Shown here: positions 3,752 through 38,392 of the stretch, in pieces
Layout: every line of letters starts with the position of its first letter
Numbering within the stretch: the stretch's first letter is position 1
Assembly: GCA_017390225.1 (NCBI GenBank)
Contig: JAFPCL010000007.1
Span: forward strand, 1 to 47,844
Source: Clostridia bacterium
GTDB lineage: Bacteria > Bacillota > Clostridia > CAKSNL01 > HGM11501
Direction: 5' to 3'
Length of the DNA stretch: 47,844 nt
Notes under the pieces: generated by a model
The model's database searches: none
What the model saw: the letters and a program-made list of their open reading frames with translations, nothing else
What the model was told of the DNA's origin: nothing
Program-made: the position numbers and the translations under genes

Positions 3752-6028
3752 TTATTTTGTGTATACGAAATAATCGTCGATATAGGGGCGAAGGGTAAGA
3801 CCGTCCCAAAGGAATATTTTAAGTGTTTTTGTGTTTTCTAAAATGATAATCCGATGCTCTTTTTTCTTCATGCCGAGATTGTCGGGCTTGATGCGGTCAA
3901 CGGACACAGCAAGGATTTCGTCGCTTTCGCCGTATTGAACGGCATACAGATAATCGGGTTCGGTATCTTTGATGCCTGTCAGGTTGTTGAACACCGTACC
4001 GATTTCGATTTCTCCGGAAGCGGGAAGCGTAGACACATAATCGTCCACCAAAGGATCGGTGTTGTAAATGGTGGAGGCATAGTATCGCAAATCGTTGCGA
4101 GTCTCTTGTGCACCGTCCTTCAAAGAACGGGGACGGTAGTCGGCAACAAATCTGTCGCTAACCAGTTCAAAACGCAGAGATTCCATGTTACCTTTTTCAA
4201 AATTGGTGGCACGAAGTGTTTTCTGCTTGGATGTATCATTGGTGCGAACATAATCTACCACGCAAGCGGCGGCGGCAGGGTCAATTTGGTCGCCGAGTGC
4301 TTTTGTCACACCATAGCAAATGCCGACGGAGAAAGAATTATTGCTGATGACGAATTCAGGGAAGGACACATCATAGGTTGAAGGATCGGTCATATCGTAG
4401 CGGATGAAGTGAACGCCGACCAAAGCTTCGGGGTTATCAAGACAACGGATTAAAAAGCTGTGCTTCGGGGGGATGGCATAGCCGTCTAAAGAAGCATATT
4501 CCGTGAAGCCGCCGACTTCACCGTATTGCAAGGAGCAACCATCCAGAGAAATCGTTTCCTCGCCGGCGTTGAAAAACTCCACGAAGGTGTGGGAGAAGGG
4601 ACAGTCGAGTGCCCATCCGCCACCGTAGACCTGATTGATCATCAAAGAGGACAGGTGTTCGGGAACGGAGGGAAGAGAGCTGTCGGTGCACTGCCATGCG
4701 CCATCTTTGGTGCTGCGGGGACGAACAAAGGAAAGCTCGGCAGTGCGGTAGTCTACGACTAAAAAGTCCTTGTCGTTGTTGTCCGTGTCGGTGAAGAACA
4801 CACGGCGCAGGGCTTTTTGCTTGGACTGCCCGAGCACGGGGTCTTTTTCTCCGCCGTCGGTGTCGCCGTCTAAGTTTCCCATGCCGATCATATCCACATA
4901 GCCATAGGCTTTTGTGCCTTGTCCGTCGGTGTCGAAGGGGTTTATCGAAGTCAGGGGCTGTGTGGTTGCCAAAAGGACAATCTTTGCGCCCTTGTTATTT
5001 ATGTAAATATCCCAGGTTTTATCATAGCTTGCGTTGAAAAGATTCAGTCTGCCGACGTTGCCTGAAATATAACTGGTATCGTTGATATGTTCGCCGCAAC
5101 GAACCAAATAGGAAGTGTGGGCAGCAAGAGTGCCGGAAAGCTTGAGCCTTGCATAGGCGGCACCCTCGGGAGCATATTGCAAGCTCCAGCCGTTTAAAGA
5201 AACGGCACTGTCCGTGGGATTATACAGCTCGATGAAGCCGTGGGTGACAGCTGTGCCGTTATCGCCGGAATCGCCGCCACCGTATGCCTGATTGATGACG
5301 ATGGGGGGAATGGAAGTCGGCGCTTGCGTGTAAGTTTCCGGGGTATAAGCACCGGAGGCTAAAGAACGCGGGCCATACATTTCAAGATCGATAAACCGAA
5401 GGTCGGCGGCAATAAAGTCAACACTGTTGTTATCGGTATCGACAAGATTGGCACGCACAATGGTATTTTGCTTGGAAATATCAAAAACAGGAGCTGTTTC
5501 TGCGATAGTCGAAGCCGTGGTGGTTGCCGAAACCATATCCACATAGCCGGAAGCTTTCGTGCCCGCACCGTCAATATCAAAGGGATTGGAAACAGTGAGC
5601 AGTGCAGTGGACTGCATCAGAACCACTTTACATTCTTTATTGTTCAGAAGCTGAGACCAGGACATATCGTAATCTCCGTCGTAAAGATTCACACGGCCGA
5701 CATCGCCTGTGATATATAAACGGTTGCTGATATGGGCACTGCCGCGCACTAAAAAAGAATGCTTGGCAGGCACGGTGCCTGATAGACGGAGCATCACCCA
5801 ATTGTCACTGTCGGCACTTTTATATTGCAGGCTGTATCCGGAAAGGGAAACAGAGGAATCGCTATCGTTATATAACTCCACATAGGAGTGGGTGGAAGCA
5901 CAGGCATTGTCTGCCGCAATACCGCCGCCGTATACGGAACGGATCATGAGTCCGTCTGCGGCATAAGCAGAAACACAAAGCAGCAGCAAGCAGACCGATA
6001 AAAGCAATACGAACAAGGATTTTTTCAT
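3752..6028 (-). CDS. Secreted protein with three tandem lamin-tail-domain (LTD) modules
   Basis: Signal peptide MKKSLFVLLLSVCLLLLCVSAYA. There are three roughly 200-aa repeats, each starting 'I(N/R)(Q/S)VYGGG....H.F(I/V)E(L/F)(Y/F)N......L.G.SLQY' and ending 'D..DF...D.R......RPRS...GA'. Start set at ATG 6028 (AAAGGAG 10 nt upstream) rather than the track TTG at 6037. Confidence 0.75.
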   Translation of the reverse strand: MKKSLFVLLLSVCLLLLCVSAYAADGLMIRSVYGGGIAADNACASTHSYVELYNDSDSSVSLSGYSLQYKSADSDNWVMLRLSGTVPAKHSFLVRGSAHISNRLYITGDVGRVNLYDGDYDMSWSQLLNNKECKVVLMQSTALLTVSNPFDIDGAGTKASGYVDMVSATTTASTIAETAPVFDISKQNTIVRANLVDTDNNSVDFIAADLRFIDLEMYGPRSLASGAYTPETYTQAPTSIPPIVINQAYGGGDSGDNGTAVTHGFIELYNPTDSAVSLNGWSLQYAPEGAAYARLKLSGTLAAHTSYLVRCGEHINDTSYISGNVGRLNLFNASYDKTWDIYINNKGAKIVLLATTQPLTSINPFDTDGQGTKAYGYVDMIGMGNLDGDTDGGEKDPVLGQSKQKALRRVFFTDTDNNDKDFLVVDYRTAELSFVRPRSTKDGAWQCTDSSLPSVPEHLSSLMINQVYGGGWALDCPFSHTFVEFFNAGEETISLDGCSLQYGEVGGFTEYASLDGYAIPPKHSFLIRCLDNPEALVGVHFIRYDMTDPSTYDVSFPEFVISNNSFSVGICYGVTKALGDQIDPAAAACVVDYVRTNDTSKQKTLRATNFEKGNMESLRFELVSDRFVADYRPRSLKDGAQETRNDLRYYASTIYNTDPLVDDYVSTLPASGEIEIGTVFNNLTGIKDTEPDYLYAVQYGESDEILAVSVDRIKPDNLGMKKKEHRIIILENTKTLKIFLWDGLTLRPYIDDYFVYTK

Positions 6029-6114
6029 AAAATTCAAGCTCCTTTTTACATATATTTATAGAATACCATAAATTTAAGAAAAAATCCAGTAGGTTCACAG
6101 AATTTTTTTTATTT

Positions 6115-6888
6115 TTACATATATTTTCGAAGGCGGAGTAGTGCTGCCTTTTCCATGCGGGAAACTTGCGCTTGCGAAATGCCGATATCGCGGGAAACCT
6201 CCATTTGTGTCCGTCCGTTGAAAAATCGAAGAGTCAGAACCTTTTTTTCCCGTTCCGAAAGGTGCGCCATCGCTTCTTTTACGGCTAAATTCTCCACCCA
6301 CATATCCACCGTGTCACGAGAATCACCCAGCTGATCCATAATATACAAAGCATCGCCGTTTTCATGATAAATCGGTTCATATAAAGACACAGGCTCTGTG
6401 ATAGCTTCCAAAGCACGGGTGATTTCTTCGGGGGTGACCTCCAAAAGCACGGCAAGCTCTTCGACCTTGGGTTCTCTTTGCTTTTCCGACAGAAGCTGTT
6501 CTCGCAGTTGCAGGGTTTTATAAGCAAGATCACGCATGGAGCGGCTGACACGAATCATATTGTTGTCACGAAGATAACGGCGAATCTCGCCGATAATCAT
6601 GGGAACGGCGTAGGTTGAAAACCGCACGTTCAGGCTTGTGTCGAAATTATCAATGGCTTTCATAAGCCCCACACAGCCAATCTGAAACAAATCGTCAATA
6701 TTTTCGTTGCGATTGGCAAAGCGCTGGATCACCGAAAGCACCAGACGCAGATTCCCTAAAATGAGCGCTTCTCTGGCACTTTTGTCACCACTGTCAAGAC
6801 GTGCAAACAGTGCTTCTTTTTCCGCTTCGGACAAAACCTTCAGCTTTGCCGTATTCACGCCGCAAATTTCCACCTTGTTTTTGATCAT
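6115..6888 (-). CDS. sigG: Forespore RNA polymerase sigma factor SigG
   Basis: 'NKVEICGV.T.KL.VL', 'GNLRLVLSVIQRF.NR', 'FSTYAVPMIIGEIRRYLRDNN.IRVSRS' are near-identical to B. subtilis SigG. Start at MIKNK (GAAGGGGG SD 7 nt upstream) rather than the track start at 6906. Confidence 0.9.
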   Translation of the reverse strand: MIKNKVEICGVNTAKLKVLSEAEKEALFARLDSGDKSAREALILGNLRLVLSVIQRFANRNENIDDLFQIGCVGLMKAIDNFDTSLNVRFSTYAVPMIIGEIRRYLRDNNMIRVSRSMRDLAYKTLQLREQLLSEKQREPKVEELAVLLEVTPEEITRALEAITEPVSLYEPIYHENGDALYIMDQLGDSRDTVDMWVENLAVKEAMAHLSEREKKVLTLRFFNGRTQMEVSRDIGISQAQVSRMEKAALLRLRKYM

Positions 6889-6920
6889 AAAAAAAGCCCC
6901 CTTCAAAGTCCTTACATTTT

Positions 6921-6977: not shown

Positions 6978-7700
6978 TTATGCTAACATGACACAAAGAA
7001 GTGCATGGGCAAAAAGCTCGTGCATTTTTGCTGTGGGATGGTTGATGTAATTCGCCAGAAGCTCCGTGGTGTCGATGCCCTTTTCATCCATGGATTTCCA
7101 CAGGGCATACACATCGGCAACGGGAATATCGTATTCCTTTGCGGCATCGCGCATGGCATCCATATAAGCATCCATGGTGCCGTCCTTTTGCCTTGCGGCA
7201 CAGGCGGCGGCAATATCTGTCATTACACCGGGCATCAGATGTGGGCTGACATAGGTGTTCATCATGTTGGGTGTCATGGCGATGACTTCACTTCCGGCGG
7301 CTTTGAGCTTTGCAAAAATTTCCCTAAGGGCATTTTTGTAGGTGTCGATGCCGGCTAACCCATGTCCGTTGTCATTGAGCCCGAAGCAAACCACGGTCAG
7401 ATCGGGGTGGTATGCCAAAATGTCCCGATCGATACGGGCAAGGCCGCCGGGAGCACTGTCGCCGCTGATGCCGGCATTGATAATATGAACGGCGGCAGGC
7501 GGACAAAGCTCTGCGAGCTGTCTTCGAAGCACGGCACTGTAGGCATCTTCTCTTTTAAAGACGGTTTCAATCTGTCCGGGGGCTTTTTCGTAGATTTCAA
7601 AACAACCTTGGGTGACACTGTCGCCTAAAAAGGCGATGGTGACGGGGGCGGCGCCGCGAAGGTCGCTTCCTTTTTGCGCGATTTTTTCAAAAATTTTCAT
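6978..7700 (-). CDS. SGNH/GDSL-family hydrolase (esterase/acylhydrolase)
   Basis: 'IAFLGDSVTQG' (block I, GDS), 'INAGISGDS' (block II), 'VVCFGLNDN' (block III). The start ATG overlaps the upstream stop (TAATG). Confidence 0.85.
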   Translation of the reverse strand: MKIFEKIAQKGSDLRGAAPVTIAFLGDSVTQGCFEIYEKAPGQIETVFKREDAYSAVLRRQLAELCPPAAVHIINAGISGDSAPGGLARIDRDILAYHPDLTVVCFGLNDNGHGLAGIDTYKNALREIFAKLKAAGSEVIAMTPNMMNTYVSPHLMPGVMTDIAAACAARQKDGTMDAYMDAMRDAAKEYDIPVADVYALWKSMDEKGIDTTELLANYINHPTAKMHELFAHALLCVMLA

Positions 7701-8542
7701 TACAAATTCACCTCATATATCAATTTTCGAAGGGTTTGAACTGACGCCGTATCGGGGCGACAGGCAAGGGAGAAAAAAGGAATGTTTTGAGAAAGATCGG
7801 AAAAGATGTTCAATGCTTTTTCTGCCAACAGAGGATGAAAAAGAGGAAGCTCCGCTTGTTCCATCATGGCGGCTATATCTTTTTCCGAGGCACGAGAAGC
7901 CAAATTTTGGGGCGCTTTTTTAAGAAGCGTTACGGCGGCAATCGGAGCACGTTCATTCAAGAAAACAAAAGAAGAACCGGCAACAGGCAAGCCGTAAGCT
8001 AAATATATGCCGTCTTTTTTTCTGATTAAAATACGGTCGCCGTTGAGAAGACGGGCGCCTGTGGTTTCTTGCCATAATGCGGCATGGGTGGATTTTCCGC
8101 CGCCGGAAGGGGCAGTGAAAATATAGGCTTTTTCATCGTGCACCACGGTGGCGGCATGGAAAAACAATCCCTCATGGGGAAGAAATGCGATGCCGAAGGG
8201 AATGAAATTTAAAGCAGCACCAAAAGACAGGGGACTATCCTTTGCCAAAGTGATGGATGCGGAATAAAAATCTTCGGAAATACGGGTACGGCAAAGCTCT
8301 CGGCCGTCGGGCAGAAAGTGGCAGAATACAAGAGAATTGTTATGTATCCACACATGACGACCGGGCGTTTGAAACAGCAGTGTGCCTTTCTGCGGCGCAA
8401 GGCTTTCTTTGGAAACCGTGACCGAAAAATTCGGCGAAGCCACCGCATCGCAGACAAAGGGAATAAAGTTTTCCGGAAGCGACAGAGACGCTTCCGAATG
8501 AACGGAAAAGAAAATATCGCCGATACAAAGTGTGGTCTGCAT
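7700..8542 (-). CDS. HPr-kinase-C-like P-loop protein (ScmC-like / RiPP-associated kinase-like)
   Basis: 'FFHAATVVHDEKAYIFTAPSGGGKSTHAALW' resembles the 'HA.AV...G.A.L..G.SG.GKST.A' core of HprK-related proteins found next to PqqD/rSAM genes. TAATG overlap with the rSAM gene. Confidence 0.55.
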   Translation of the reverse strand: MQTTLCIGDIFFSVHSEASLSLPENFIPFVCDAVASPNFSVTVSKESLAPQKGTLLFQTPGRHVWIHNNSLVFCHFLPDGRELCRTRISEDFYSASITLAKDSPLSFGAALNFIPFGIAFLPHEGLFFHAATVVHDEKAYIFTAPSGGGKSTHAALWQETTGARLLNGDRILIRKKDGIYLAYGLPVAGSSFVFLNERAPIAAVTLLKKAPQNLASRASEKDIAAMMEQAELPLFHPLLAEKALNIFSDLSQNIPFFSLACRPDTASVQTLRKLIYEVNL

Positions 8543-9624
8543 TAAGCCTCTTCCTCCTTTGGATGCATGGCATCATACAAACATTCACCCCAAGCGCAGT
8601 GATAGGCGGAAGGCTCGTCTAAATGTCGGTTTTCCGCTTGAATAGCACCAAGACATGCCGTGCAATAAGCAGACTTTTTGCAAGCTCTGCAATCGGGCGG
8701 AGCGGTGATTTTGTTTGCGGCATTTTTGATTGCATCCCATGCGGCGGAAAATCCGCAAAGAAGCGGCTCCGCATAAGGGCGGTCGAATAAAAGACAGGGA
8801 CGCATACGTCCTTCCCATGTGATGACATAAGAAGTTTTGCCTGCCGTACAGGAAAATGCTTCGCCGGCACAGGCATCTTTATCTTCGGCAATATGCCGCA
8901 GTGTTTCGGGGGACAAGTCGCGGTTGACATGTGCTCGCAAGGCAAGAAGCTCTTTCGGCGCAAGGCGAACACTTGCAACGTCGCTTTTTGCACCGCGGAC
9001 AGCGGCAGACAAAACGGAACAGTAGACAAAGTCCGCACCTTTTTCCGTCGCCATGGCACACAGAGCATCAAAATCCGACACGTTGAGCTTTGAAATCGTC
9101 GTGCGAATCTGCACGGGAATCGATAAAGACAGGAAAAAATCAAGCCCTTGCATGGCTTTTTCATAAGCCTCTTTTTGTCCAGTGACCCGCTCATAGGTTT
9201 CGGGGGATGCGCCGTAAATACTGATGCCTACAGCAGACGGCGGAATACGGCGAAACAGTGCTTGAAGGGCGGGGGTGACCAAGGTGGCATTGGTATACAG
9301 CTTAATCAGAAAGCCCATTCTTGACAATCCTTCGTATATCTCGGGGAAATCGGGGCGGAGCATGGCTTCGCCGCCGGTAAGCAATAAAAACAGTGTGCCG
9401 CTTTTTTGTGCCGCTTCGCCCAACGCCAACCAATCATTACAGGACAAGGGGCGGGAAATGGCGGCGGCTTCTTCTTTGGACAGGCGCATATAGCACATTT
9501 TGCATCCGAGATTGCAAAATGGCGTCAGTTCAAACGTACCGAACAGAGGAACCCCCTGATCGAGTGCGGCGGCAGACAGCTTGTCTTTGAGCGCCGCCCA
9601 ATCATCATAAAATGCGGCTCTCAT
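8542..9624 (-). CDS. Radical SAM enzyme with C-terminal SPASM (auxiliary 4Fe-4S) domain, peptide-maturase type
   Basis: CX3CX2C 'CNLGCKMC' at the N-terminus and a 'LLLTGGE' SAM-binding motif. C-terminal 'FSCTAGKTSYVITWEGRMRPC' plus 'CRACKKSAYCTAC' give a SPASM-type Cys pattern. Confidence 0.9.
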   Translation of the reverse strand: MRAAFYDDWAALKDKLSAAALDQGVPLFGTFELTPFCNLGCKMCYMRLSKEEAAAISRPLSCNDWLALGEAAQKSGTLFLLLTGGEAMLRPDFPEIYEGLSRMGFLIKLYTNATLVTPALQALFRRIPPSAVGISIYGASPETYERVTGQKEAYEKAMQGLDFFLSLSIPVQIRTTISKLNVSDFDALCAMATEKGADFVYCSVLSAAVRGAKSDVASVRLAPKELLALRAHVNRDLSPETLRHIAEDKDACAGEAFSCTAGKTSYVITWEGRMRPCLLFDRPYAEPLLCGFSAAWDAIKNAANKITAPPDCRACKKSAYCTACLGAIQAENRHLDEPSAYHCAWGECLYDAMHPKEEEA

Positions 9625-9890
9625 GCATCCACCAAAAGGCCGCCTTCGCGCATAGCATTTAAAAATGCGGCAACGTCTTGTTCGGCAAGAGATTGTTCAA
9701 CATCATATTCTTCTAAAAGAGCGGCAACCAAGCTTTCCTGTGTTTGCTGTGTTGTCAATAGCTTCCATAGAAAAGCCCCTGTTTCATTCAGTGTAATCAT
9801 GCCGCTGAAGTTCTGAAGTTCTTCGCCGCAGGGAATGACCATATAAGAGCCTGCAATCTCTCGCAAAATATAATTATCTTTAATCTTCAT
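9621..9890 (-). CDS. PqqD-family protein (RiPP recognition element / peptide chaperone)
   Basis: 'ITLNETGAFLWKLL....T.E.LV..L..EYDV....A..DV..FL..M...GLL' matches the PqqD pattern. ATG 9890 has GGAG 7 nt upstream; an alternative GTG at 9896 overlaps the SDR stop. The stop overlaps the rSAM start (ATGA). Confidence 0.8.
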   Translation of the reverse strand: MKIKDNYILREIAGSYMVIPCGEELQNFSGMITLNETGAFLWKLLTTQQTQESLVAALLEEYDVEQSLAEQDVAAFLNAMREGGLLVDA

Positions 9891-9892
9891 GT

Positions 9893-10729
9893 TCACACTC
9901 CGGAATAAGCAGAGAATCCGCCGTCAACAGGAACAACAACGCCATTGACAAAGCCGGAAACCTCGTTGTCGGCAAGCCACAAAAGTGTGCCGTTTAATTC
10001 CTCGGGCGCACCGAACCGTCCCATGGGCGTCTGGGAAAGAATTTTTTCGGCACGGGCAGACCAAGAGCCGTCCTCTTGAAGAAGAAGACCGCGATTCTGA
10101 TTGGTCAGGAAAAAGCCGGGGGCAATGGCGTTTACACGGATGCCGACCTTGCAAAAATGAACGGCAAGCCATTGGGTCAGATTGGATACGGCGGCTTTGG
10201 CACCGCTGTAGGCAGGGATTCTCGTCAAGGGGGTGAAGGCGTTCATGGAAGACACGTTAATTACGGTAGCGCCTTCTTTATCGACCATGGAGGCGGCAAA
10301 GACCTGTGTGGTCAGAAGTGCACCTAAAAAGTTCAGATTAAAAACAAAAGAGATGCCGTCCTGATCCAGATCAAAGAAGGTTTTCACGCTTTCTTCCGCT
10401 TGCGTCAGATCTTCGGGATACAAATAGTCCTTGGTCGTGGTACCTTTGGGGTGATTGCCGCCGGCACCGTTGATGAGAATGTCGCAAGTGCCGAAGGCTT
10501 TTTCTACGGCTTCTTTGGCGTTTATCAGGCTGGCTTTATCCAGCACATTGACAGTGACGCCGATGGCATCGCCCCCTCGGGCGCGGATTTCTTCGGCGAC
10601 CGATTCTGCCGCCGCGGCGTTCAAGTCCAAAAGAGCAACGCGCACGCCTTTTTCTGCCAAGGCAAGGGCAAAGGCGCGGCAGAGAACACCACCACCACCG
10701 GTGATAACAGCTACTTTATTTTTCAACAT
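9893..10729 (-). CDS. SDR-family NAD(P)-dependent oxidoreductase
   Basis: 'VAVITGGGGVLC' Rossmann motif, 'NGAG', catalytic 'YSGAKAAV', C-terminal 'VPVDGG'. Confidence 0.9.
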   Translation of the reverse strand: MLKNKVAVITGGGGVLCRAFALALAEKGVRVALLDLNAAAAESVAEEIRARGGDAIGVTVNVLDKASLINAKEAVEKAFGTCDILINGAGGNHPKGTTTKDYLYPEDLTQAEESVKTFFDLDQDGISFVFNLNFLGALLTTQVFAASMVDKEGATVINVSSMNAFTPLTRIPAYSGAKAAVSNLTQWLAVHFCKVGIRVNAIAPGFFLTNQNRGLLLQEDGSWSARAEKILSQTPMGRFGAPEELNGTLLWLADNEVSGFVNGVVVPVDGGFSAYSGV

Positions 10730-10741
10730 AATCCATTCCTC

Positions 10742-11524
10742 CTAACGAAAAATTTCGCCGACATTTTGCAAAATATATGTGGGCTTTATCGTGGACGCAC
10801 GGGCTTGCTCCAAGGTTGTTTCGCCGCTGAGAACCAACACCGTGTCCACACCGGCATTTTGTCCGGCGGCAATATCCGTGTAGATCCGATCGCCGATGAG
10901 AACGGCATCGGGCTTTTCCATTCCGGCTTTCTTGAGGGCGAGCTCTACCATTTCTTTTTGGGGCTTGCCGATAAACAAAGGCTCTCTGCCTGTGGCATTT
11001 TTCAGCATGATGCTGACACTGCCGCAGTCGGGCACATAGCCAAATTCCGTGGGGCAGACAAAGTCGGGGTTGGTGGCAATATAATCAACCCCTTGTCCCA
11101 GCAAAATACAGGCATCTACAAGCTTTTGGTACACAAGCTCCGTGTCGTAGCCCATAACAAGGCAGTCAATGCCGTCCTGCAATTGGGTGGTGATATTGAG
11201 TCCTGCATTTTTCAGCTCCTCGCACAAAGAAGCTGTGCCCAGAACATAAAGAAGCTTGTCTTTATAATGCTCTAAAAGATAAATGGCCGTTGCCTGCGAA
11301 GAGGTTAAAAAATCATCCTCCGTTGCGACAATGCCGAAGGAGGCAAGCTTTTCAACATAACGGGAAACACTTTTGGAGGAATTGTTCGTTAAGTACATGG
11401 CACGAGCACCGTGCGATTTTATCTGCTCCAAAAAGGGAAGCGTTTCGGGGAAAAGGTCATTTCCGAGATAAAGTGTGCCGTCCATATCCAGCAAGAATAG
11501 TTTTTTGTTTTCGAGTTGATGCAT
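10742..11524 (-). CDS. HAD-IIA family sugar/nucleotide phosphatase (NagD/YutF-like)
   Basis: Start at MHQLENKKLFLLDMDGTLYLG (GGAGG SD 6 nt upstream). 'YLTNNSSKS' and 'LIGDRIYTDIAAG' motifs are present. The track N-terminal extension (to 11731) runs through the promoter region and is rejected. Confidence 0.85.
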   Translation of the reverse strand: MHQLENKKLFLLDMDGTLYLGNDLFPETLPFLEQIKSHGARAMYLTNNSSKSVSRYVEKLASFGIVATEDDFLTSSQATAIYLLEHYKDKLLYVLGTASLCEELKNAGLNITTQLQDGIDCLVMGYDTELVYQKLVDACILLGQGVDYIATNPDFVCPTEFGYVPDCGSVSIMLKNATGREPLFIGKPQKEMVELALKKAGMEKPDAVLIGDRIYTDIAAGQNAGVDTVLVLSGETTLEQARASTIKPTYILQNVGEIFR

Positions 11525-11555
11525 ACGGAGCCTCCTAAAATAATTGATTGATTTA

Positions 11556-11584
11556 ATTATACTCTTAAAAAATAAATAAGTCAA
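11556..11584 (-). promoter_or_regulatory. Sigma-A-type promoter for the HAD-SDR-PqqD-rSAM-HprK-like-SGNH string
   Basis: Minus strand reads TTGACT-N17-TATAAT, about 30 nt upstream of the HAD-IIA start. Confidence 0.55.
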
Positions 11585-11602: not shown

Positions 11603-11632
11603 TTGACAAAACAGGGGAATTCGGCATATGAT
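11603..11632 (+). promoter_or_regulatory. Sigma-A-type promoter for the dipeptidase gene (divergent)
   Basis: TTGACA-N18-TATGAT. The -10 overlaps the track ATG at 11628, which supports the downstream start at 11664. Confidence 0.45.
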
Positions 11633-12518: not shown

Positions 12519-12553
12519 TTTTTTTGATAAAAAATAAAAATTCAAAAAAACCA

Positions 12554-12582
12554 TTGATTTTTTCAGAAAGGCTCATTATAAT
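12554..12582 (+). promoter_or_regulatory. Sigma-A-type promoter for cysE-cysS
   Basis: TTGATT-N17-TATAAT, about 35 nt upstream of the cysE start. Confidence 0.55.
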
Positions 12583-12617
12583 ATAGTCGACATACGATGG
12601 GTAAAATATGAAAAGAG

Positions 12618-13268
12618 GTGTTTGCGTTGTTTGATAATATTCGTTATGATATAAAAAACATTATGCAAAAAGACCCCGCCGCACGCAGTGCGATTGAAGT
12701 ATTCTTTTTGTATCCATCGGTGCGCGCCCTTCGGGATTACCGCTTTGCGCATTGGCTGTATAAACATAAGTGCTTCTTTTTGGCACGCATGGTGTCGCAG
12801 AACAGCCGCCGTGCGACCAATATAGAGATTCATCCTGCCGCCACCATCGGCAAGGGGCTGTTTATCGACCACGGTGCAGGGGTAATCATCGGGGAAACAA
12901 CGATTATCGGCGATAACTGCACGCTTTATCAGGGCGTAACCCTCGGCGGTACGGGTAAAGATATTGGCAAGCGTCATCCCACTTTAGGCAATAATGTCAT
13001 GGTGGGTGCCGGTGCAAAAATCTTAGGGCCTTTCACCGTAGGGGATAATGCAAAAATCGCCGCCAATGCCGTGGTGCTGAGCGAAGTGCCGCCGGATGCC
13101 ACCTGTGTAGGCGTTCCCGGGCGTGTGGTACGGGTGAAAAATCAACGCGTCAATGATATTGATCAAATCCATATTCCCGACCCCGTGGCACAGCAGTTCG
13201 CCGCCATGCAAAAACAAATCGACAGCTTGATACAAGAGCTTGAAACCATGAAGAAAGGAGAATTCTGA
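12618..13268 (+). CDS. cysE: Serine O-acetyltransferase
   Basis: 'DPAARS..EV...YP...A...R.AHWLY' and hexapeptide repeats '[43 protein letters not shown]', 'KRHPTLG' are close to B. subtilis CysE. The track start is GTG 12618; TTG 12627 fits the AAGAGG SD better. Confidence 0.9.
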
Positions 13269-23593: not shown

Positions 23594-24637
23594 ATGTCCC
23601 AAGCTATCATCGAACTTAAGAATGTGTCCAAGAAGTTTGATGGCGACGATGTTTTAAACAACATCAGCTTTACAATTAACAGACACGAATTTGTTACCCT
23701 TTTGGGCCCTTCCGGTTGCGGTAAGACCACAACCTTGCGTATCATCGGCGGTTTTGAAACACCGTCGGAGGGAGAGGTTTTGTTTGAAGGAAAAGACCTT
23801 CTGGCATTGCCGTCCCACAAACGAAGCATCAACACGGTATTCCAGAAATATGCATTGTTTCCGCATATGAATGTTTATGACAATATTGCATTCGGACTGA
23901 AAGTCAAGAAAACGGAAAAGAGTGTCATTCGCGGAAAAGTGGAAGAAGCTTTGAAGCTTGTGAATCTTTCGGGGTATGAACGGCGCAATGTGGAAGCCTT
24001 GTCCGGTGGCCAGCAACAGCGTGTTGCCATTGCCCGCGCGATTGTTAATGAACCCAAGGTTCTTCTTTTGGATGAACCGCTGGGAGCATTGGACTTAAAG
24101 CTTCGCAAAGAAATGCAAATCGAGCTGAAGCGTATGCAACAGCGACTGGGGATTACGTTTATTTATGTCACCCATGATCAGGAAGAAGCCCTGACCATGA
24201 GCGACCGCATTGTGGTTATGAATAAAGGGCAGATTCAGCAAATCGGATCTCCCGAAGATATTTATAACGAGCCGCAAAATGCATTTGTTGCCGGCTTTAT
24301 TGGCGACAGCAATATTTTAGACGGCGTTATGTTAGACGATTTTCGTGTCGTGTTTTTGGGGCATGAATTCGAGTGTGTAGACAAAGGCTTTGGAAAAAAT
24401 GAGATCGTGGATGTGGTGCTTCGTCCCGAAGACGTTAAGCTCAAGCCGCAGAACGAGGGCATGATTCAAGGTCTGGTTAAGTCTGCCATTTTTAAAGGCG
24501 TTCATTATGAAATGGTTGTAGAAACCGAAGGAACATCGCTGATTGTACATTCTACGCATTTGCGCGAACCGGGCACGCCCGTCGGCATCAGCGTGGTTCC
24601 CTTTGACATACAAATTATGAAGAAGGTGGCACCATGA
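23594..24637 (+). CDS. potA: Spermidine/putrescine ABC transporter ATP-binding protein
   Basis: Walker A 'GPSGCGKTT', signature '[14 protein letters not shown]', Walker B 'LLLDEP', and a C-terminal TOBE-like tail. GGGGGAGG SD. Confidence 0.9.
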
Positions 24638-34465: not shown

Positions 34466-34612
34466 TTAGCAACCGCAGTTGTTGCAACCGCAATTGTTGC
34501 TATAACCGCAGTTGTTGTTTGTCAACAGAAGAACGATGATGATGGCGAGAATAACCCAGATGAAGCAGTTGCAGTCAAACAGGCTATTGTTGTTATTGCA
34601 GCAATCAGACAT
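34466..34612 (-). CDS. Unlisted 48-aa Cys/Asn-rich single-TM peptide: MSDCCNNNNSLFDCNCFIWVILAIIIVLLLTNNNCGYSNNCGCNNCGC
   Basis: Hand translation of the minus strand: ATG at 34612 and TAA at 34468-34466. GGAGG SD lies 11 nt upstream, and a terminator hairpin lies 35 nt downstream. It occupies an otherwise empty 332-nt gap. Architecture (short Cys-rich flank, hydrophobic core, Cys-rich tail) resembles tiny YjcZ-type sporulation proteins. Confidence 0.6.
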   Translation of the reverse strand: MSDCCNNNNSLFDCNCFIWVILAIIIVLLLTNNNCGYSNNCGCNNCGC

Positions 34613-34729: not shown

Positions 34730-35860
34730 ATGAAGCTGTTGATTTTGTCCGTCACGGCAGGGCATGGGCACAATAAAACCTCTCAGGCACTTTTATCTGC
34801 ATGGGAAGCGCTGGGGCATGAAGGCGTGATTTTAGACACCTATGAATTTTTAGAGCCCATCGTAGGAAAAAGTGTGGATAAGGGCTATTTGATGAGCACA
34901 AAATATACACCGAAGCTGTATGGTGCCGTCTACTCTTTTTTAGATAAGCAGGATTTGGATACACTCGAGAATGTTCCGTCGTTTTCATCCAAGGAAATGC
35001 GGGAAAAAATCGAAGAGTATATTGCTTCCTATGCACCCGACGCCATTGTGTGTCCCCATGTGTTCACGGCAGAAATCATGTCAAAAATTAAAGATTCCAT
35101 CGGAAACATTCCCGTGTGGGGGATTATTACGGATTATACCATCCATCCTTTTTGGCAAACCTGCCAGCTGGACGGGTACGTGATTCCGAATGAGCTTTTA
35201 AAAGCAGAGTGCCAAAGAAAAGGGATGCCCATGCGGAAAATTTATCCCACAGGGATTCCCGTGTCTCCGACTTTTAAAAAGAAAATAGCGGCATCGGAAG
35301 CCAAAGCACAGCTATCCCTTGATCCCGAAAAAAGAACGGTCATGCTGATGACCGGAAGTATGGGGTTTGGAAATATCGGAAAAATTGTAGAAAGGCTCGA
35401 TCAGCTTTCGTCGGATTTTCAAATGCTGATTATTACGGGAAACAACAAACGTGCCTACCGCTCTTTATCCAAGAAAGAGTGGAAGCATTCTATGCATATC
35501 TACGGCTTTGTGGACAACGTGAATGTTATGATGGACGCATCGGATGTTTTGGTTACAAAGCCCGGCGGGCTGTCCGTGTCGGAAAGCTTGGTCAAGGGGC
35601 TTCCCATGATTTTGATTAACCCTATTCCGGGGCAGGAAAAACGCAATATGGAGTTTTTGGTTAACTGCGGCGTGGGCATGGCAACCTCCAAAACCTGTGC
35701 CGTGGAGGACTGCGTATATATGTATATGGAAAACGAGTGGCTGCGTGATCGGATGAAGGCATCGGTGGGATATATCCGAAAGCCCGATGCGGCAGAGAAT
35801 CTCGCAGAAATATTGATCGACAGAATAAGGAGGAAAAATATTGGAGAAGATAACGATTAA
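34730..35860 (+). CDS. MGDG-synthase-family / GT28 diacylglycerol glycosyltransferase (UgtP-like)
   Basis: 'LILSVTAGHGHNKTSQAL' N-terminus and C-terminal 'VLVTKPGGLSVSESL..GLPMI..NPIPGQE..N'. Confidence 0.8.
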   Translation: MKLLILSVTAGHGHNKTSQALLSAWEALGHEGVILDTYEFLEPIVGKSVDKGYLMSTKYTPKLYGAVYSFLDKQDLDTLENVPSFSSKEMREKIEEYIASYAPDAIVCPHVFTAEIMSKIKDSIGNIPVWGIITDYTIHPFWQTCQLDGYVIPNELLKAECQRKGMPMRKIYPTGIPVSPTFKKKIAASEAKAQLSLDPEKRTVMLMTGSMGFGNIGKIVERLDQLSSDFQMLIITGNNKRAYRSLSKKEWKHSMHIYGFVDNVNVMMDASDVLVTKPGGLSVSESLVKGLPMILINPIPGQEKRNMEFLVNCGVGMATSKTCAVEDCVYMYMENEWLRDRMKASVGYIRKPDAAENLAEILIDRIRRKNIGEDND

Positions 35861-37112
35861 AAAGGGTATTCAATTATATTTGTTGCCCGATCAAAAATAT
35901 AAGACCTTTTTACTGCGTGCATATTTGTTTCAACCGCTGAAAAAGGAAACCGTAACGAAAAATGCACTTTTGGGCACGATGCTCCGCCAAGGAACGGAAA
36001 AATTTCCGGATCGCTTGTCTATTGTTCGTCAAACGGAGCGGCTGTATGATACCCAGATTGATGCCGATGCACAAAAAATCGGAGAACTGCAAGCCATCCG
36101 TGTGGATTTGGGCGGTGTGAATCCTGCCTTTTTGCCGCAGAGCGAAACCTATTGGCAGGAGGCACTGGAGCTGTTCGGACAGATGCTTTTATGCCCTTAT
36201 GCTCCGGGCGGCACATTCCCCGAGGATGTGCTGGCGGTGGAAAAAGAAAATTTAAAAGATCGGATTGAAGCTGTTATCAATGAAAAACGCGGATATGCCA
36301 TGCAGCAGCTTTTAAAAACCATGTGCGAAGATGAGCCCATGGGAATTCCCGACGACGGGTATAAAGAAGAGGTTGACGGCATTTCCGGCAGTGCGCTTTT
36401 TGCACAATATCAAGAGGTTTTAAATAACAGCCCCATCTGTATTTTTGCCGCCGGCAGCTTCGATGCGGAAGCGGTGACAACGTATCTCAGAGATATTCTC
36501 AAGGATTTGCCGGAGAGAGAAGAAGAGCTTCAAAAGCCCGTGGTGATTCGTCGGGCAGAAACTCAGAAATATAAAGAAGAACGCCTGGATGTGGTGCAAG
36601 GCAAGCTTTGCATGGGCTTCCGCACCGATGCCGTGGGCAATGAACCGGGCTATTATCCACTTCTTGTGATGAATAGTGTTTTCGGCTCCGGCGCACACTC
36701 TAAGCTTTTCAATGAAGTGCGTGAGAAAATGTCGCTGTGCTACTATGCTTCTTCGGGACTTTCCCGCAATAAGGGGATTTTGATGGTTTCCGCAGGCATT
36801 GAATTTAAGAATTTTGAAGTTGCCAAAGAAGGCATTTTAAAAGAGCTCGAAAAAGTGAAGGCAGGACAAATCACGGACAGTGAAGAAACCGCCGCCAAGC
36901 TTGCGCTTTGCAATGCCATTCGTGCCGCAGAGGACAGCAAGGTGCAGCAAATCGGAAGAGCCCTCAGCGGTATTCTGTCCGGAGACACGCGCACGGCGGA
37001 AGAAGAAATGGCGGCTGTGATGGCTGTTACCAAAGAGGATATGATGGCGGCGGCGAAAAAGCTGACGCTGGATACCGTTTATTTCCTGCGTGGAGAGGAG
37101 GAAGCCGAATGA
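35841..37112 (+). CDS. M16-family peptidase-like protein lacking the HxxEH motif (YmfF/YfmF-like non-catalytic partner)
   Basis: TTG start 7 nt after AAGGAGG. Insulinase-like length and pairing, but no HxxEH near the N-terminus. ATGA overlap with the next M16 gene. Confidence 0.7.
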   Translation: MEKITIKKGIQLYLLPDQKYKTFLLRAYLFQPLKKETVTKNALLGTMLRQGTEKFPDRLSIVRQTERLYDTQIDADAQKIGELQAIRVDLGGVNPAFLPQSETYWQEALELFGQMLLCPYAPGGTFPEDVLAVEKENLKDRIEAVINEKRGYAMQQLLKTMCEDEPMGIPDDGYKEEVDGISGSALFAQYQEVLNNSPICIFAAGSFDAEAVTTYLRDILKDLPEREEELQKPVVIRRAETQKYKEERLDVVQGKLCMGFRTDAVGNEPGYYPLLVMNSVFGSGAHSKLFNEVREKMSLCYYASSGLSRNKGILMVSAGIEFKNFEVAKEGILKELEKVKAGQITDSEETAAKLALCNAIRAAEDSKVQQIGRALSGILSGDTRTAEEEMAAVMAVTKEDMMAAAKKLTLDTVYFLRGEEEAE

Positions 37113-38392
37113 TTTTCAATGAAATCAAATACGACAGCATGAAGGAGCATATTTTCTGCGGAACGCATGAAAGCGGTCTGCGTGTCTTTGTGCTTCCCAA
37201 AACAGGCTTTACAAAGAATTATGCTATTTATGCCACGGCATTCGGCTCCATCAACAACACCTTTGTACCGCTGGGGGAAGACGAGGTCGTCACGGTTCCC
37301 GACGGAATTGCACACTTTCTGGAACACAAGATGTTTGAAGAAGAAACAGGCACCAATATTTTTGATGAATTTGCACGTCTGGGCGCCAATGCCAATGCCT
37401 TCACGTCTTCTTCCATGACGGCATACCTGTTTTCCGCCACGGACTTTTTCTATGAAAATCTGGAAGTGCTTTTAGGCTATGTCAACCGTCCGTATTTCAC
37501 GCCGGAAAACATAGAAAAAGAACAGGGCATCATCGGACAGGAGATTCGAATGTATGACGATTCTCCCGATTGGCAGGTCTATATCGGCGTACTGCGCGGT
37601 TTGTATCAAAAGCACACGGCACGTCTTGATATTGCAGGCACGGTGGAAAGCATTGCACAAATCGATCAACAAGCCATGTATCGTTGCTATAACACCTACT
37701 ATCATCCCTCCAATATGTGCCTTTTTGTTGCCGGCAACGTAGAGCCCGACAAAGTGGGTGCACTGGTGGAAAAGCAATTGGCAGGCAGAACTATTGCACC
37801 GCCCGTCAAGGAATTTTTCCCGGAAGAGCCCGAAGCGGTCTGCGCACCTGTTGTGGAAAAGAAAATGAATGTGGCAATGCCGCAGTTCGTGCTGGCATTC
37901 AAAGATAATGAAGTCAGCGATAAAGACCGCCTGAAGCACGGGGCAGAAGCCGAACTTTTGTGCGACCTGATTGCAGGCGAATCCACGGATTTTTATCAAT
38001 CGCTGTATAAAGAAGGGCTGATTAACGAAGGCTTTTCCGGTGCATACGAAGGCGACAAGAGCTTTGGATTTGCAACCTTCTACGGGGAATCCAAAAACCC
38101 CATGGAAGTGAAAAATCGCATTATGGAGCGCATTGCACAAATGAAAGCCGAGGGCGTCAACAAAGAAGACTTGGAGCGCATGAAACGGCAAAATATCGGT
38201 CGCTTTATTCGCGGACTGGATCGTGTAGAAGATATTGCCAACGTATATGTCTCCCATGCACTGATGGGAGAAGATTATATGCAATATCCCGAAGCTTTGG
38301 CATCGGTGACACCAAAGGATTTGGATTCCTTGATTGCACGACTCTTTAAGGAAGAGAGCGCAACGATTAGTATTGTGTGGCCGATCGACTGA
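37109..38392 (+). CDS. M16-family zinc peptidase (YmfH/YfmH-like, catalytic partner)
   Basis: Start at MIFNEIKYD. Inverted zinc motif 'HFLEH' in 'GIAHFLEHKMFEE'. The track N-terminal extension from 36908 overlaps the upstream gene and is rejected. Confidence 0.8.
   Translation: MIFNEIKYDSMKEHIFCGTHESGLRVFVLPKTGFTKNYAIYATAFGSINNTFVPLGEDEVVTVPDGIAHFLEHKMFEEETGTNIFDEFARLGANANAFTSSSMTAYLFSATDFFYENLEVLLGYVNRPYFTPENIEKEQGIIGQEIRMYDDSPDWQVYIGVLRGLYQKHTARLDIAGTVESIAQIDQQAMYRCYNTYYHPSNMCLFVAGNVEPDKVGALVEKQLAGRTIAPPVKEFFPEEPEAVCAPVVEKKMNVAMPQFVLAFKDNEVSDKDRLKHGAEAELLCDLIAGESTDFYQSLYKEGLINEGFSGAYEGDKSFGFATFYGESKNPMEVKNRIMERIAQMKAEGVNKEDLERMKRQNIGRFIRGLDRVEDIANVYVSHALMGEDYMQYPEALASVTPKDLDSLIARLFKEESATISIVWPID

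Follow-up and report, generated by a model that had tools for sequence, protein, structure and literature searches.

We describe here a compact block of six genes on a contig of a metagenome-assembled genome (MAG) of a 'Clostridia bacterium' (GenBank assembly GCA_017390225.1, contig JAFPCL010000007.1), the whole 47.8 kb stretch that was analysed (47,844 nucleotides) being referred to below as the window. All six open reading frames (ORFs) lie on the minus strand. In order of transcription, they encode a haloacid dehalogenase-type (HAD-IIA) phosphatase of the sugar-phosphate/NagD-like kind (10742–11524), a classical short-chain dehydrogenase/reductase (SDR) of the D-mannonate oxidoreductase (UxuB-like) subfamily (9893–10729), a PqqD family protein predicted to be a discrete RRE (RiPP recognition element, where RiPPs are peptides made on the ribosome and modified after translation; 9621–9890), a radical S-adenosylmethionine (rSAM)/SPASM enzyme that is probably a Cys-dependent cross-linker (8542–9624), a P-loop protein with the HprK/PEPCK fold that belongs to the PF27840 'ScmC' family and may be an LppK-like peptide Ser kinase (7700–8542) and an SGNH/GDSL esterase (6978–7700) that is translationally coupled to the kinase-like gene. 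The PqqD, rSAM and HprK-like proteins, hereafter the trio, form the core of the module that is our subject; the HAD, SDR and SGNH genes provide its operon context, the HAD gene lying outside the conserved module.

The block is preceded by a sigma-70-type promoter read from the sequence (TTGACT-N17-TATAAT, 11556–11584, minus strand) that matches 11 of 12 consensus positions and has the top score of the region. Back-to-back with it lies a divergent promoter on the plus strand (TTGACA-18-TATGAT, 11603–11632) that serves an M19 dipeptidase gene. Within the block the genes are tightly packed: the HAD stop codon (TAG) is separated from the SDR ATG by 12 nt containing the sequence GGAGG, the largest intergenic gap present, and the SDR stop codon (TGA) is followed after the dinucleotide AC by the PqqD ATG at position 9890. 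An alternative GTG start at 9896 overlaps the SDR stop codon but alignment of 12 PqqD homologues favours the ATG. The PqqD and rSAM genes overlap as ATGA, and the rSAM/HprK-like and HprK-like/SGNH junctions are both TAATG overlaps with a Shine-Dalgarno sequence upstream of each. Coordinates, junctions and promoter thus all agree with a sequence-only reading of this DNA, which had proposed six coupled genes behind a near-consensus promoter. Terminator-like matches in the block all fall within coding sequence, none being judged convincing, and none was found between the SGNH gene and sigG. The latter gene (6115–6906; NF006071, 421 bits) comes after the operon, 71 nt downstream of the SGNH gene, and the 71-nt spacer holds a forespore-type promoter-like sequence (GTATA...CATACTTA), such that sigG appears to have a promoter of its own. 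The usual arrangement has spoIIGA-sigE immediately upstream of sigG; the window differs, as spoIIGA-sigE is not seen directly upstream.

The PqqD protein matches PF05402 with 69.6 bits. Its best sequence match among Protein Data Bank (PDB) entries is LppB (9x8z_B, E = 2.5e-6), and all six LppB contact residues considered (N33, Y60, D70, F74, M78 and L83) are kept in the window protein as N35, Y62, D72, F76, M80 and L85. These are the residues that hold the leader Tyr and Pro in the LppB structure. A single-sequence model of the protein, used for topology and top fold matches only in view of its low confidence (predicted local distance difference test score, pLDDT, of 64.5), has the beta3-alpha3 topology of an RRE, the fold that the sequence-only reading had said should be looked for, and its top fold matches are TbiB1-leader complexes with a template modelling (TM) score of 0.63. 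The window PqqD is closest to RREs of the lasso peptide B1 and LPP (linear polyphosphorylated peptide) LppB types.

The rSAM protein belongs to the Radical SAM/SPASM superfamily. It matches PF04055 above cutoff (65.8 bits) and, in an 11-sequence alignment, the CX3CX2C motif (C37/C41/C44) and the SPASM cysteines C259, C277, C312, C315, C321, C324 and C343 are invariant or nearly so. The SPASM Pfam model PF13186 falls below threshold for this protein, and no NCBIfam model scores above its cutoff, with NirJ2, ScmE/F, MftC, PqqE, SkfB and AlbA all below. The nearest solved relative by sequence is the thioether synthase SkfB (6efn). Among 8000 candidates scored, 2210 rSAM homologues were found at E <= 1e-10 but only three clusters exceed 45% identity. 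One protein (P0418) is a natural fusion of 650 aa that joins a Radical_SAM/SPASM region (residues 33–334) to an ScmC-like domain (374–648), which supports functional coupling of the rSAM and ScmC enzymes.

Family models match the HprK-like protein weakly (TIGR04352, 31.4 bits against a cutoff of 200). It carries a precomputed match to PF27840 ('ScmC'), and its AlphaFold model (pLDDT 95) matches the folds of ATP-dependent PEPCK and HprK/P. The Pfam set scanned here apparently lacks PF27840, as both the window protein and an ScmC homologue at another locus (L012), which likewise has a precomputed PF27840 match, went unmatched, and the ScmC assignment is therefore drawn from the precomputed matches and the fold. 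The Walker A motif (APSGGGKST) is intact and 20 columns are invariant in the family alignment; in the window protein and its closest relatives, the C-terminal helices depart from the canonical consensus. The ScmC-like kinase family as a whole is large, with 2316 cluster representatives at E <= 1e-30.

A contig scan with a single ScmC protein as query returned two distant loci only (L001 and L002), and a metagenome scan with an ScmC alignment added 80 loci. The rSAM, ScmC and PqqD genes occur together in 47 of the loci fetched, and these loci group into 16 clusters when rSAM identity is set at 90%. In 12 of the 16 clusters, an ORF of 45–95 aa that is positive with a leader profile hidden Markov model (HMM) precedes the ScmC gene at a median distance of 60 nt, in line with the earlier suggestion that the trio is a peptide-modification module; genes for a SipW-like signal peptidase, an MsbA-like exporter and an NTP_transf_5 protein are usually found there too. 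One of the remaining four clusters is cut at the contig start; the other three have no precursor and together make up the window clade. A recurrent layout, unlike that of the window, is seen in all homologues examined at 42% identity or below: PqqD, rSAM, an ORF of 50–81 aa, ScmC, an S24/SipW-like peptidase of ~150 aa and an ABC exporter, in many cases close to genes for NTP_transf_5 and for the capsule (Wzz/Wzy). A common leader, MKKxYxKPx[LIF]xxxxL, is found in the small ORFs. In these canonical relatives the peptidase, with 37 bits, stays under the TIGR02228 cutoff of 51.85, the exporter has MsbA models as its top matches and the NTP_transf_5 protein matches PF14907 with 217 bits.

The precursors themselves offer clues to the chemistry. 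Those linked to rSAM genes carry two to four Cys residues and those in loci without rSAM carry none; in two apparent exceptions (L016 and L047) the contig ends before the position expected for the rSAM gene. In those rSAM-linked precursors that were aligned by hand, the first Cys was found 19–20 residues after the leader Tyr, and LPP and rSAM-less peptides were found to have Ser at Tyr+18 to +20. Of 35 distinct related precursor peptides, 23 end in Ser. Two abundant clades of human-gut and other metagenome contigs (L018–L049) encode precursors of 72–95 aa that end in ...FTS or ...FGS(Y), and are ordered either precursor-ScmC-rSAM or precursor-ScmC-large gene-rSAM. These clades adjoin very large ORFs (828–1490 aa), at least two of which have signal-peptide-like N-termini.

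None of the missing partners could be found in the window. The leader HMM, which returns E~1e-13 on positive controls, gave no match either in the window or among its near relatives (best E = 4.7), and regex scans of the window for a YxxP-leader precursor were likewise negative; with a maximum gap of 12 nt, the block indeed leaves no room for a stand-alone precursor ORF, as the sequence-only reading had stated. Four SpI-like queries gave no phmmer match to an SpI/SipW-like peptidase in the window, NTP_transf_5 had no match there and no MsbA-type exporter was present, the sole match being a generic ABC ATPase at 23594–24637. An Rfam scan of the whole window at gathering thresholds identified no family and no T-box, including upstream of cysE-cysS (12519–13268).

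Three further possibilities for a precursor were considered and set aside. A comparison of the window with its relative L003 for overlapping ORFs hidden in other frames proved uninformative, as many alternative frames stay open through sequence similarity alone. YxxP motifs within the SGNH protein (TYVSPHL) and the rSAM protein (YAEPLL) were rejected as internal leaders because they lie within folded domains and because, by rough estimate, the motif arises some tens of times by chance in a stretch of this size. A 48-aa Cys/Asn-rich ORF at 34466–34612 (MSDCCNNNNSLFDCNCFIWVILAIIIVLLLTNNNCGYSNNCGCNNCGC) had been put forward earlier as a candidate substrate with no strand stated. It lies on the minus strand, the only strand on which it is Cys-rich, and it makes a poor candidate: it has no YxxP leader and no NCBIfam match and, by eye, resembles a tiny protein with a hydrophobic core.

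The sequence-only reading recognised no named system in this combination of genes. The relatives of the trio do, however, match the biosynthetic clusters for LPPs that were published in 2026 and defined in Bacilli (Popov et al., Nat Commun 2026;17:6633, PMC13381572). The core genes of these clusters encode a precursor with a YxxPxVL leader, an HprK-like kinase (LppK), a discrete RRE (LppB), a SipW-like peptidase (LppS), an MsbA-like exporter (LppD) and an NTP_transf_5 protein (LppN). LppK adds several phosphates to Ser3 of the core peptide and the final product is possibly glycosylated. The clusters are embedded in capsule loci, often beside paeninodin-like lasso clusters, and TIGR04249 (ScmC) is listed in the supplementary domain table of the paper, the main text and supplement text of which make no mention of a radical SAM enzyme (PMC13381572).

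The parallels extend to the window itself. Its PqqD is an LppB-type discrete RRE that keeps the Tyr/Pro pocket residues, and its HprK-like protein, with the PF27840/HprK-PEPCK fold and an intact Walker A motif, can be linked to LppK via the TIGR04249 table entry. The distant relatives of the window have the YxxPx[LIV] leader, the SipW-like peptidase, the MsbA-like exporter, the NTP_transf_5 protein and the capsule-locus setting. In one of them, from Clostridium polyendosporum (L009, 10365–14377), the rSAM-LPP-like cluster directly adjoins a paeninodin-type lasso cluster, as in Bacilli. This lasso cluster comprises Asn synthase-like, HprK-like, PqqD and transglutaminase-like genes together with a 50-aa precursor that ends in Ser. 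The window differs from LPP clusters in having a radical SAM/SPASM enzyme, in having no adjacent YxxPx[V/L] precursor, SpI-like peptidase, exporter or NTP-transferase and in belonging to a lineage of Clostridia rather than Bacilli, whilst the rSAM-linked precursors place Cys at Tyr+19/+20 where the phosphorylated Ser of LPPs lies at about Tyr+18. The trio is best read as a derived and stripped-down offshoot of the LPP-type RiPP clusters found in Bacillota, with an additional rSAM enzyme. Loss of the precursor would be the derived state, since the window clade is nested inside precursor-bearing lineages in a rough neighbour-joining tree. An rSAM/SPASM-bearing LPP-like branch (L008–L014, L018–L049 and L055), common in Clostridia and human-gut metagenome contigs, has apparently not been described before.

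Other known systems are less similar. The HprK-like kinases of paeninodin-type lasso peptide clusters share the P-loop fold and the logic of RRE-dependent, leader-guided modification, and many related precursors (23 of 35) end in Ser, the residue that lasso kinases phosphorylate. No macrolactam synthetase or B2 protease is found in the window, however, and the lasso kinase of L009 matches PF07475 where the window protein does not. The SynChlorMet cassette (ScmC, ScmD, ScmE/F) contains the same three types of protein, also with no recognised precursor. It differs in having two rSAM genes where the window has one and in its taxa, and all scores fall well short of the cutoffs (TIGR04248, 23.3 against 100; TIGR04249, 19.9 against 125; TIGR04250, 80.0 against 400; TIGR04251, 80.9 against 400). 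The models for the HPr-rel-A system also score below cutoff (TIGR04352 as above; TIGR04353, 19.1 against 35).

Sacti- and ranthipeptide maturases (SkfB, AlbA, PapB) resemble the window rSAM in combining a radical SAM domain with SPASM auxiliary clusters and in acting under RRE guidance; the substrates of the canonical relatives contain Cys, and SkfB provides the nearest solved structure by sequence. In the window, however, the RRE is a separate protein, and all equivalog models score below cutoff. Mycofactocin and PQQ pathways likewise pair a PqqD-type chaperone with an rSAM/SPASM enzyme but here too the scores are low (MftC, TIGR03962, 68.6 against 265; PqqE, 64.7 against 381.35; PqqD equivalog, 25.5 against 46). 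No families of the MftD/E/F type were identified among nine neighbouring proteins scanned and no MftA or PqqA peptide was seen in the window. In keeping with the sequence-only reading, the module stays below cutoff for the mycofactocin, PQQ and SynChlorMet models alike.

The three flanking enzymes present a different picture. The SDR matches adh_short and scores 432.8 bits with NF006132 (cutoff 281), the HAD-IIA protein matches PF13344 and PF13242 and scores 135 bits with TIGR01460 (cutoff 100), and the SGNH protein matches PF13472 (GDSL_2) with 90 bits. SGNH homologues are numerous (4602 at E <= 1e-20, many at 52–59% identity). In all three neighbourhoods of SGNH orthologues examined (54–56% identity), the gene follows a LacAB_rpiB gene among rhamnosidase/glycosidase genes with no trio present; at one of them, L099, a HAD-IIA orthologue of 52% identity is present as well, together with an unrelated SDR (25% identity). 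Linkage of the SDR, HAD and SGNH genes with the trio is confined to contigs whose rSAM identity is 76% or higher (L003, L004 and L015). At 95% and 76% rSAM identity synteny is full, extending to sigG, the M19 peptidase gene, cysE and cysS. A relative at 48%, on the other hand, has PGK-TIM-iPGM-PHP upstream, followed by PqqD-rSAM-ScmC alone.

These data bear on the view, put forward in the sequence-only reading, that the six genes constitute a single pathway in which the SDR, the HAD phosphatase and the SGNH esterase tailor or consume a peptide-derived product. Tight translational coupling behind a single promoter and the synteny maintained at 76% and 95% rSAM identity would be expected of such a pathway. 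LPP clusters, moreover, sit in polysaccharide loci and their product may be glycosylated, and an adh_short gene lies ~1 kb from the cluster in L014. We nevertheless consider a six-gene pathway improbable: the linkage is gone in the 48% relative and in all 12 precursor-bearing clusters, orthologues of the SGNH and HAD genes are widespread in sugar-utilisation neighbourhoods without the trio, and the SDR passes the cutoff of a subfamily of sugar-acid reductases. The latter result also leaves an analogy drawn earlier with mycofactocin-linked SDRs unsupported, the window enzyme being of the UxuB type. The pace of evolution is slower in the flanking genes than in the trio (86–92% amino acid identity against 67–81%; HAD-IIA dN/dS, the ratio of non-synonymous to synonymous substitution rates, 0.06), as expected of resident housekeeping genes. 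On the strength of the trio-less orthologues in sugar clusters and this slower evolution, HAD, SDR and SGNH look like metabolic residents of the locus, transcribed together with the trio, rather than tailoring enzymes, and the proposed six-gene 'system' is probably not a system.

Is the trio itself functional? A decaying remnant of an LPP-like cluster with no current function might be expected to lack the four partners that are missing here (precursor, peptidase, exporter and NTP-transferase) and to evolve faster than its flanks, as the trio does. Comparison with the 76% and 95% relatives, however, gave dN/dS values of 0.14 for PqqD, 0.07–0.08 for rSAM and 0.17–0.27 for ScmC (dS ~0.2–2.5). No reading frame is broken and the start/stop overlaps have been kept, and three lineages retain all catalytic Cys residues, the Walker A motif and the residues of the RRE pocket. 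The trio is under purifying selection and is not decaying, making a functionless remnant the least probable explanation of all and one to which we give very little weight.

How, then, might the trio act? In the canonical relatives, the RRE would bind the YxxPx[LIVF] leader and offer the peptide to its partner enzymes. Ser would be phosphorylated by the kinase-like enzyme, for which LppK provides a precedent in the literature, and in the Clostridial branch the rSAM/SPASM enzyme would modify Cys, probably forming thioether links of the sacti-/ranthipeptide type. Thereafter, the SipW-like peptidase would cut off the leader and the MsbA-like pump would export the product. The restriction of precursor Cys to rSAM loci, the high proportion of peptides ending in Ser and the position of SkfB as nearest solved relative lead us to infer that the rSAM enzyme cross-links Cys and the kinase phosphorylates Ser. 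The window lineage would have lost the adjacent precursor, peptidase, exporter and NTP-transferase, with the remaining trio becoming embedded in a sigma-A-driven operon alongside the HAD-IIA phosphatase, the UxuB-like SDR and the SGNH esterase. Since the trio is under selection and the Tyr/Pro pocket of its RRE has been kept, it would most likely act in trans on a YxxP-leader peptide from elsewhere in the genome, such as from a second LPP-like or lasso-like locus. The explanation we favour, with moderate confidence, is that the trio works in trans as an orphan tailoring set of RRE, rSAM enzyme and kinase, one that descends from an LPP-like cluster with an rSAM gene and is now housed in a housekeeping operon.

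Several considerations weigh against it. No precursor that could serve in trans was found in the 47.8-kb contig or the short related contigs searched and, as the window is also without peptidase, exporter and NTP-transferase, the trans model needs a second locus. Lack of a precursor is a stable trait of three lineages, with rSAM identities down to 48%, and would also fit a change of substrate. The tree in which the window clade is nested has short internal branches. Both the kinase and the thioether chemistries are carried over from relatives, and the likeness of ScmC to LppK is drawn from the TIGR04249 table entry rather than from a direct alignment.

A change of substrate is the main alternative. 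Were the module re-targeted to a non-canonical substrate (for example a larger protein, or a peptide that is intracellular or comes from other bacteria), peptidase and exporter would become dispensable, explaining why they are missing jointly with precursor and NTP-transferase in three lineages in which purifying selection on the trio persists. The predicted co-transcription with housekeeping genes from a vegetative-type promoter and the unusual C-terminal helices of the window-clade ScmC proteins are in keeping with this. The RRE, however, retains every LppB residue that holds the leader Tyr and Pro, pointing to a conventional leader peptide, and no window protein with a YxxP motif at an accessible terminus was found; on balance, re-targeting seems unlikely, if deserving of more weight than the six-gene pathway. 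More doubtful still is the broader proposal that the trio has been freed from its precursor and now modifies a cellular protein or foreign YxxP-leader peptides, or builds a peptide-derived cofactor for the co-transcribed sugar enzymes.

Two features elsewhere in the window may be recorded in passing. A 761-aa protein encoded at 3752–6037 has an N-terminus that, by eye, is signal-peptide-like and contains three lamin-tail domains (PF00932). At 35841–38392 lies a YfmF/YfmH pair of M16-like proteins associated with the 5-aminopentanol modification of EF-P, each of which passes its NCBIfam cutoff. The YfmF and YfmH ORFs as listed overlap by ~200 nt; the true YfmH start is probably further downstream, as the model match begins at residue 73.

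As described from Bacilli in 2026, the LPP family consists of kinase-only clusters; it now appears to include a large and undescribed rSAM/SPASM branch in Clostridia and gut metagenomes. With precursor Cys residues located near the position of the LPP phospho-Ser, this branch is predicted to produce peptides that are both cross-linked and phosphorylated, which would be a new chemotype. If the trio of the window has been retargeted to a non-RiPP target or cofactor, RRE-dependent rSAM enzymes would gain a new functional class. The window shows that, in a cluster of this kind, the genes for recognition and tailoring can persist under selection without precursor, peptidase or exporter, and its orphan trio bears on the sharing of RiPP enzymes between loci, the question of 'pathway interference' raised in the LPP paper (PMC13381572).

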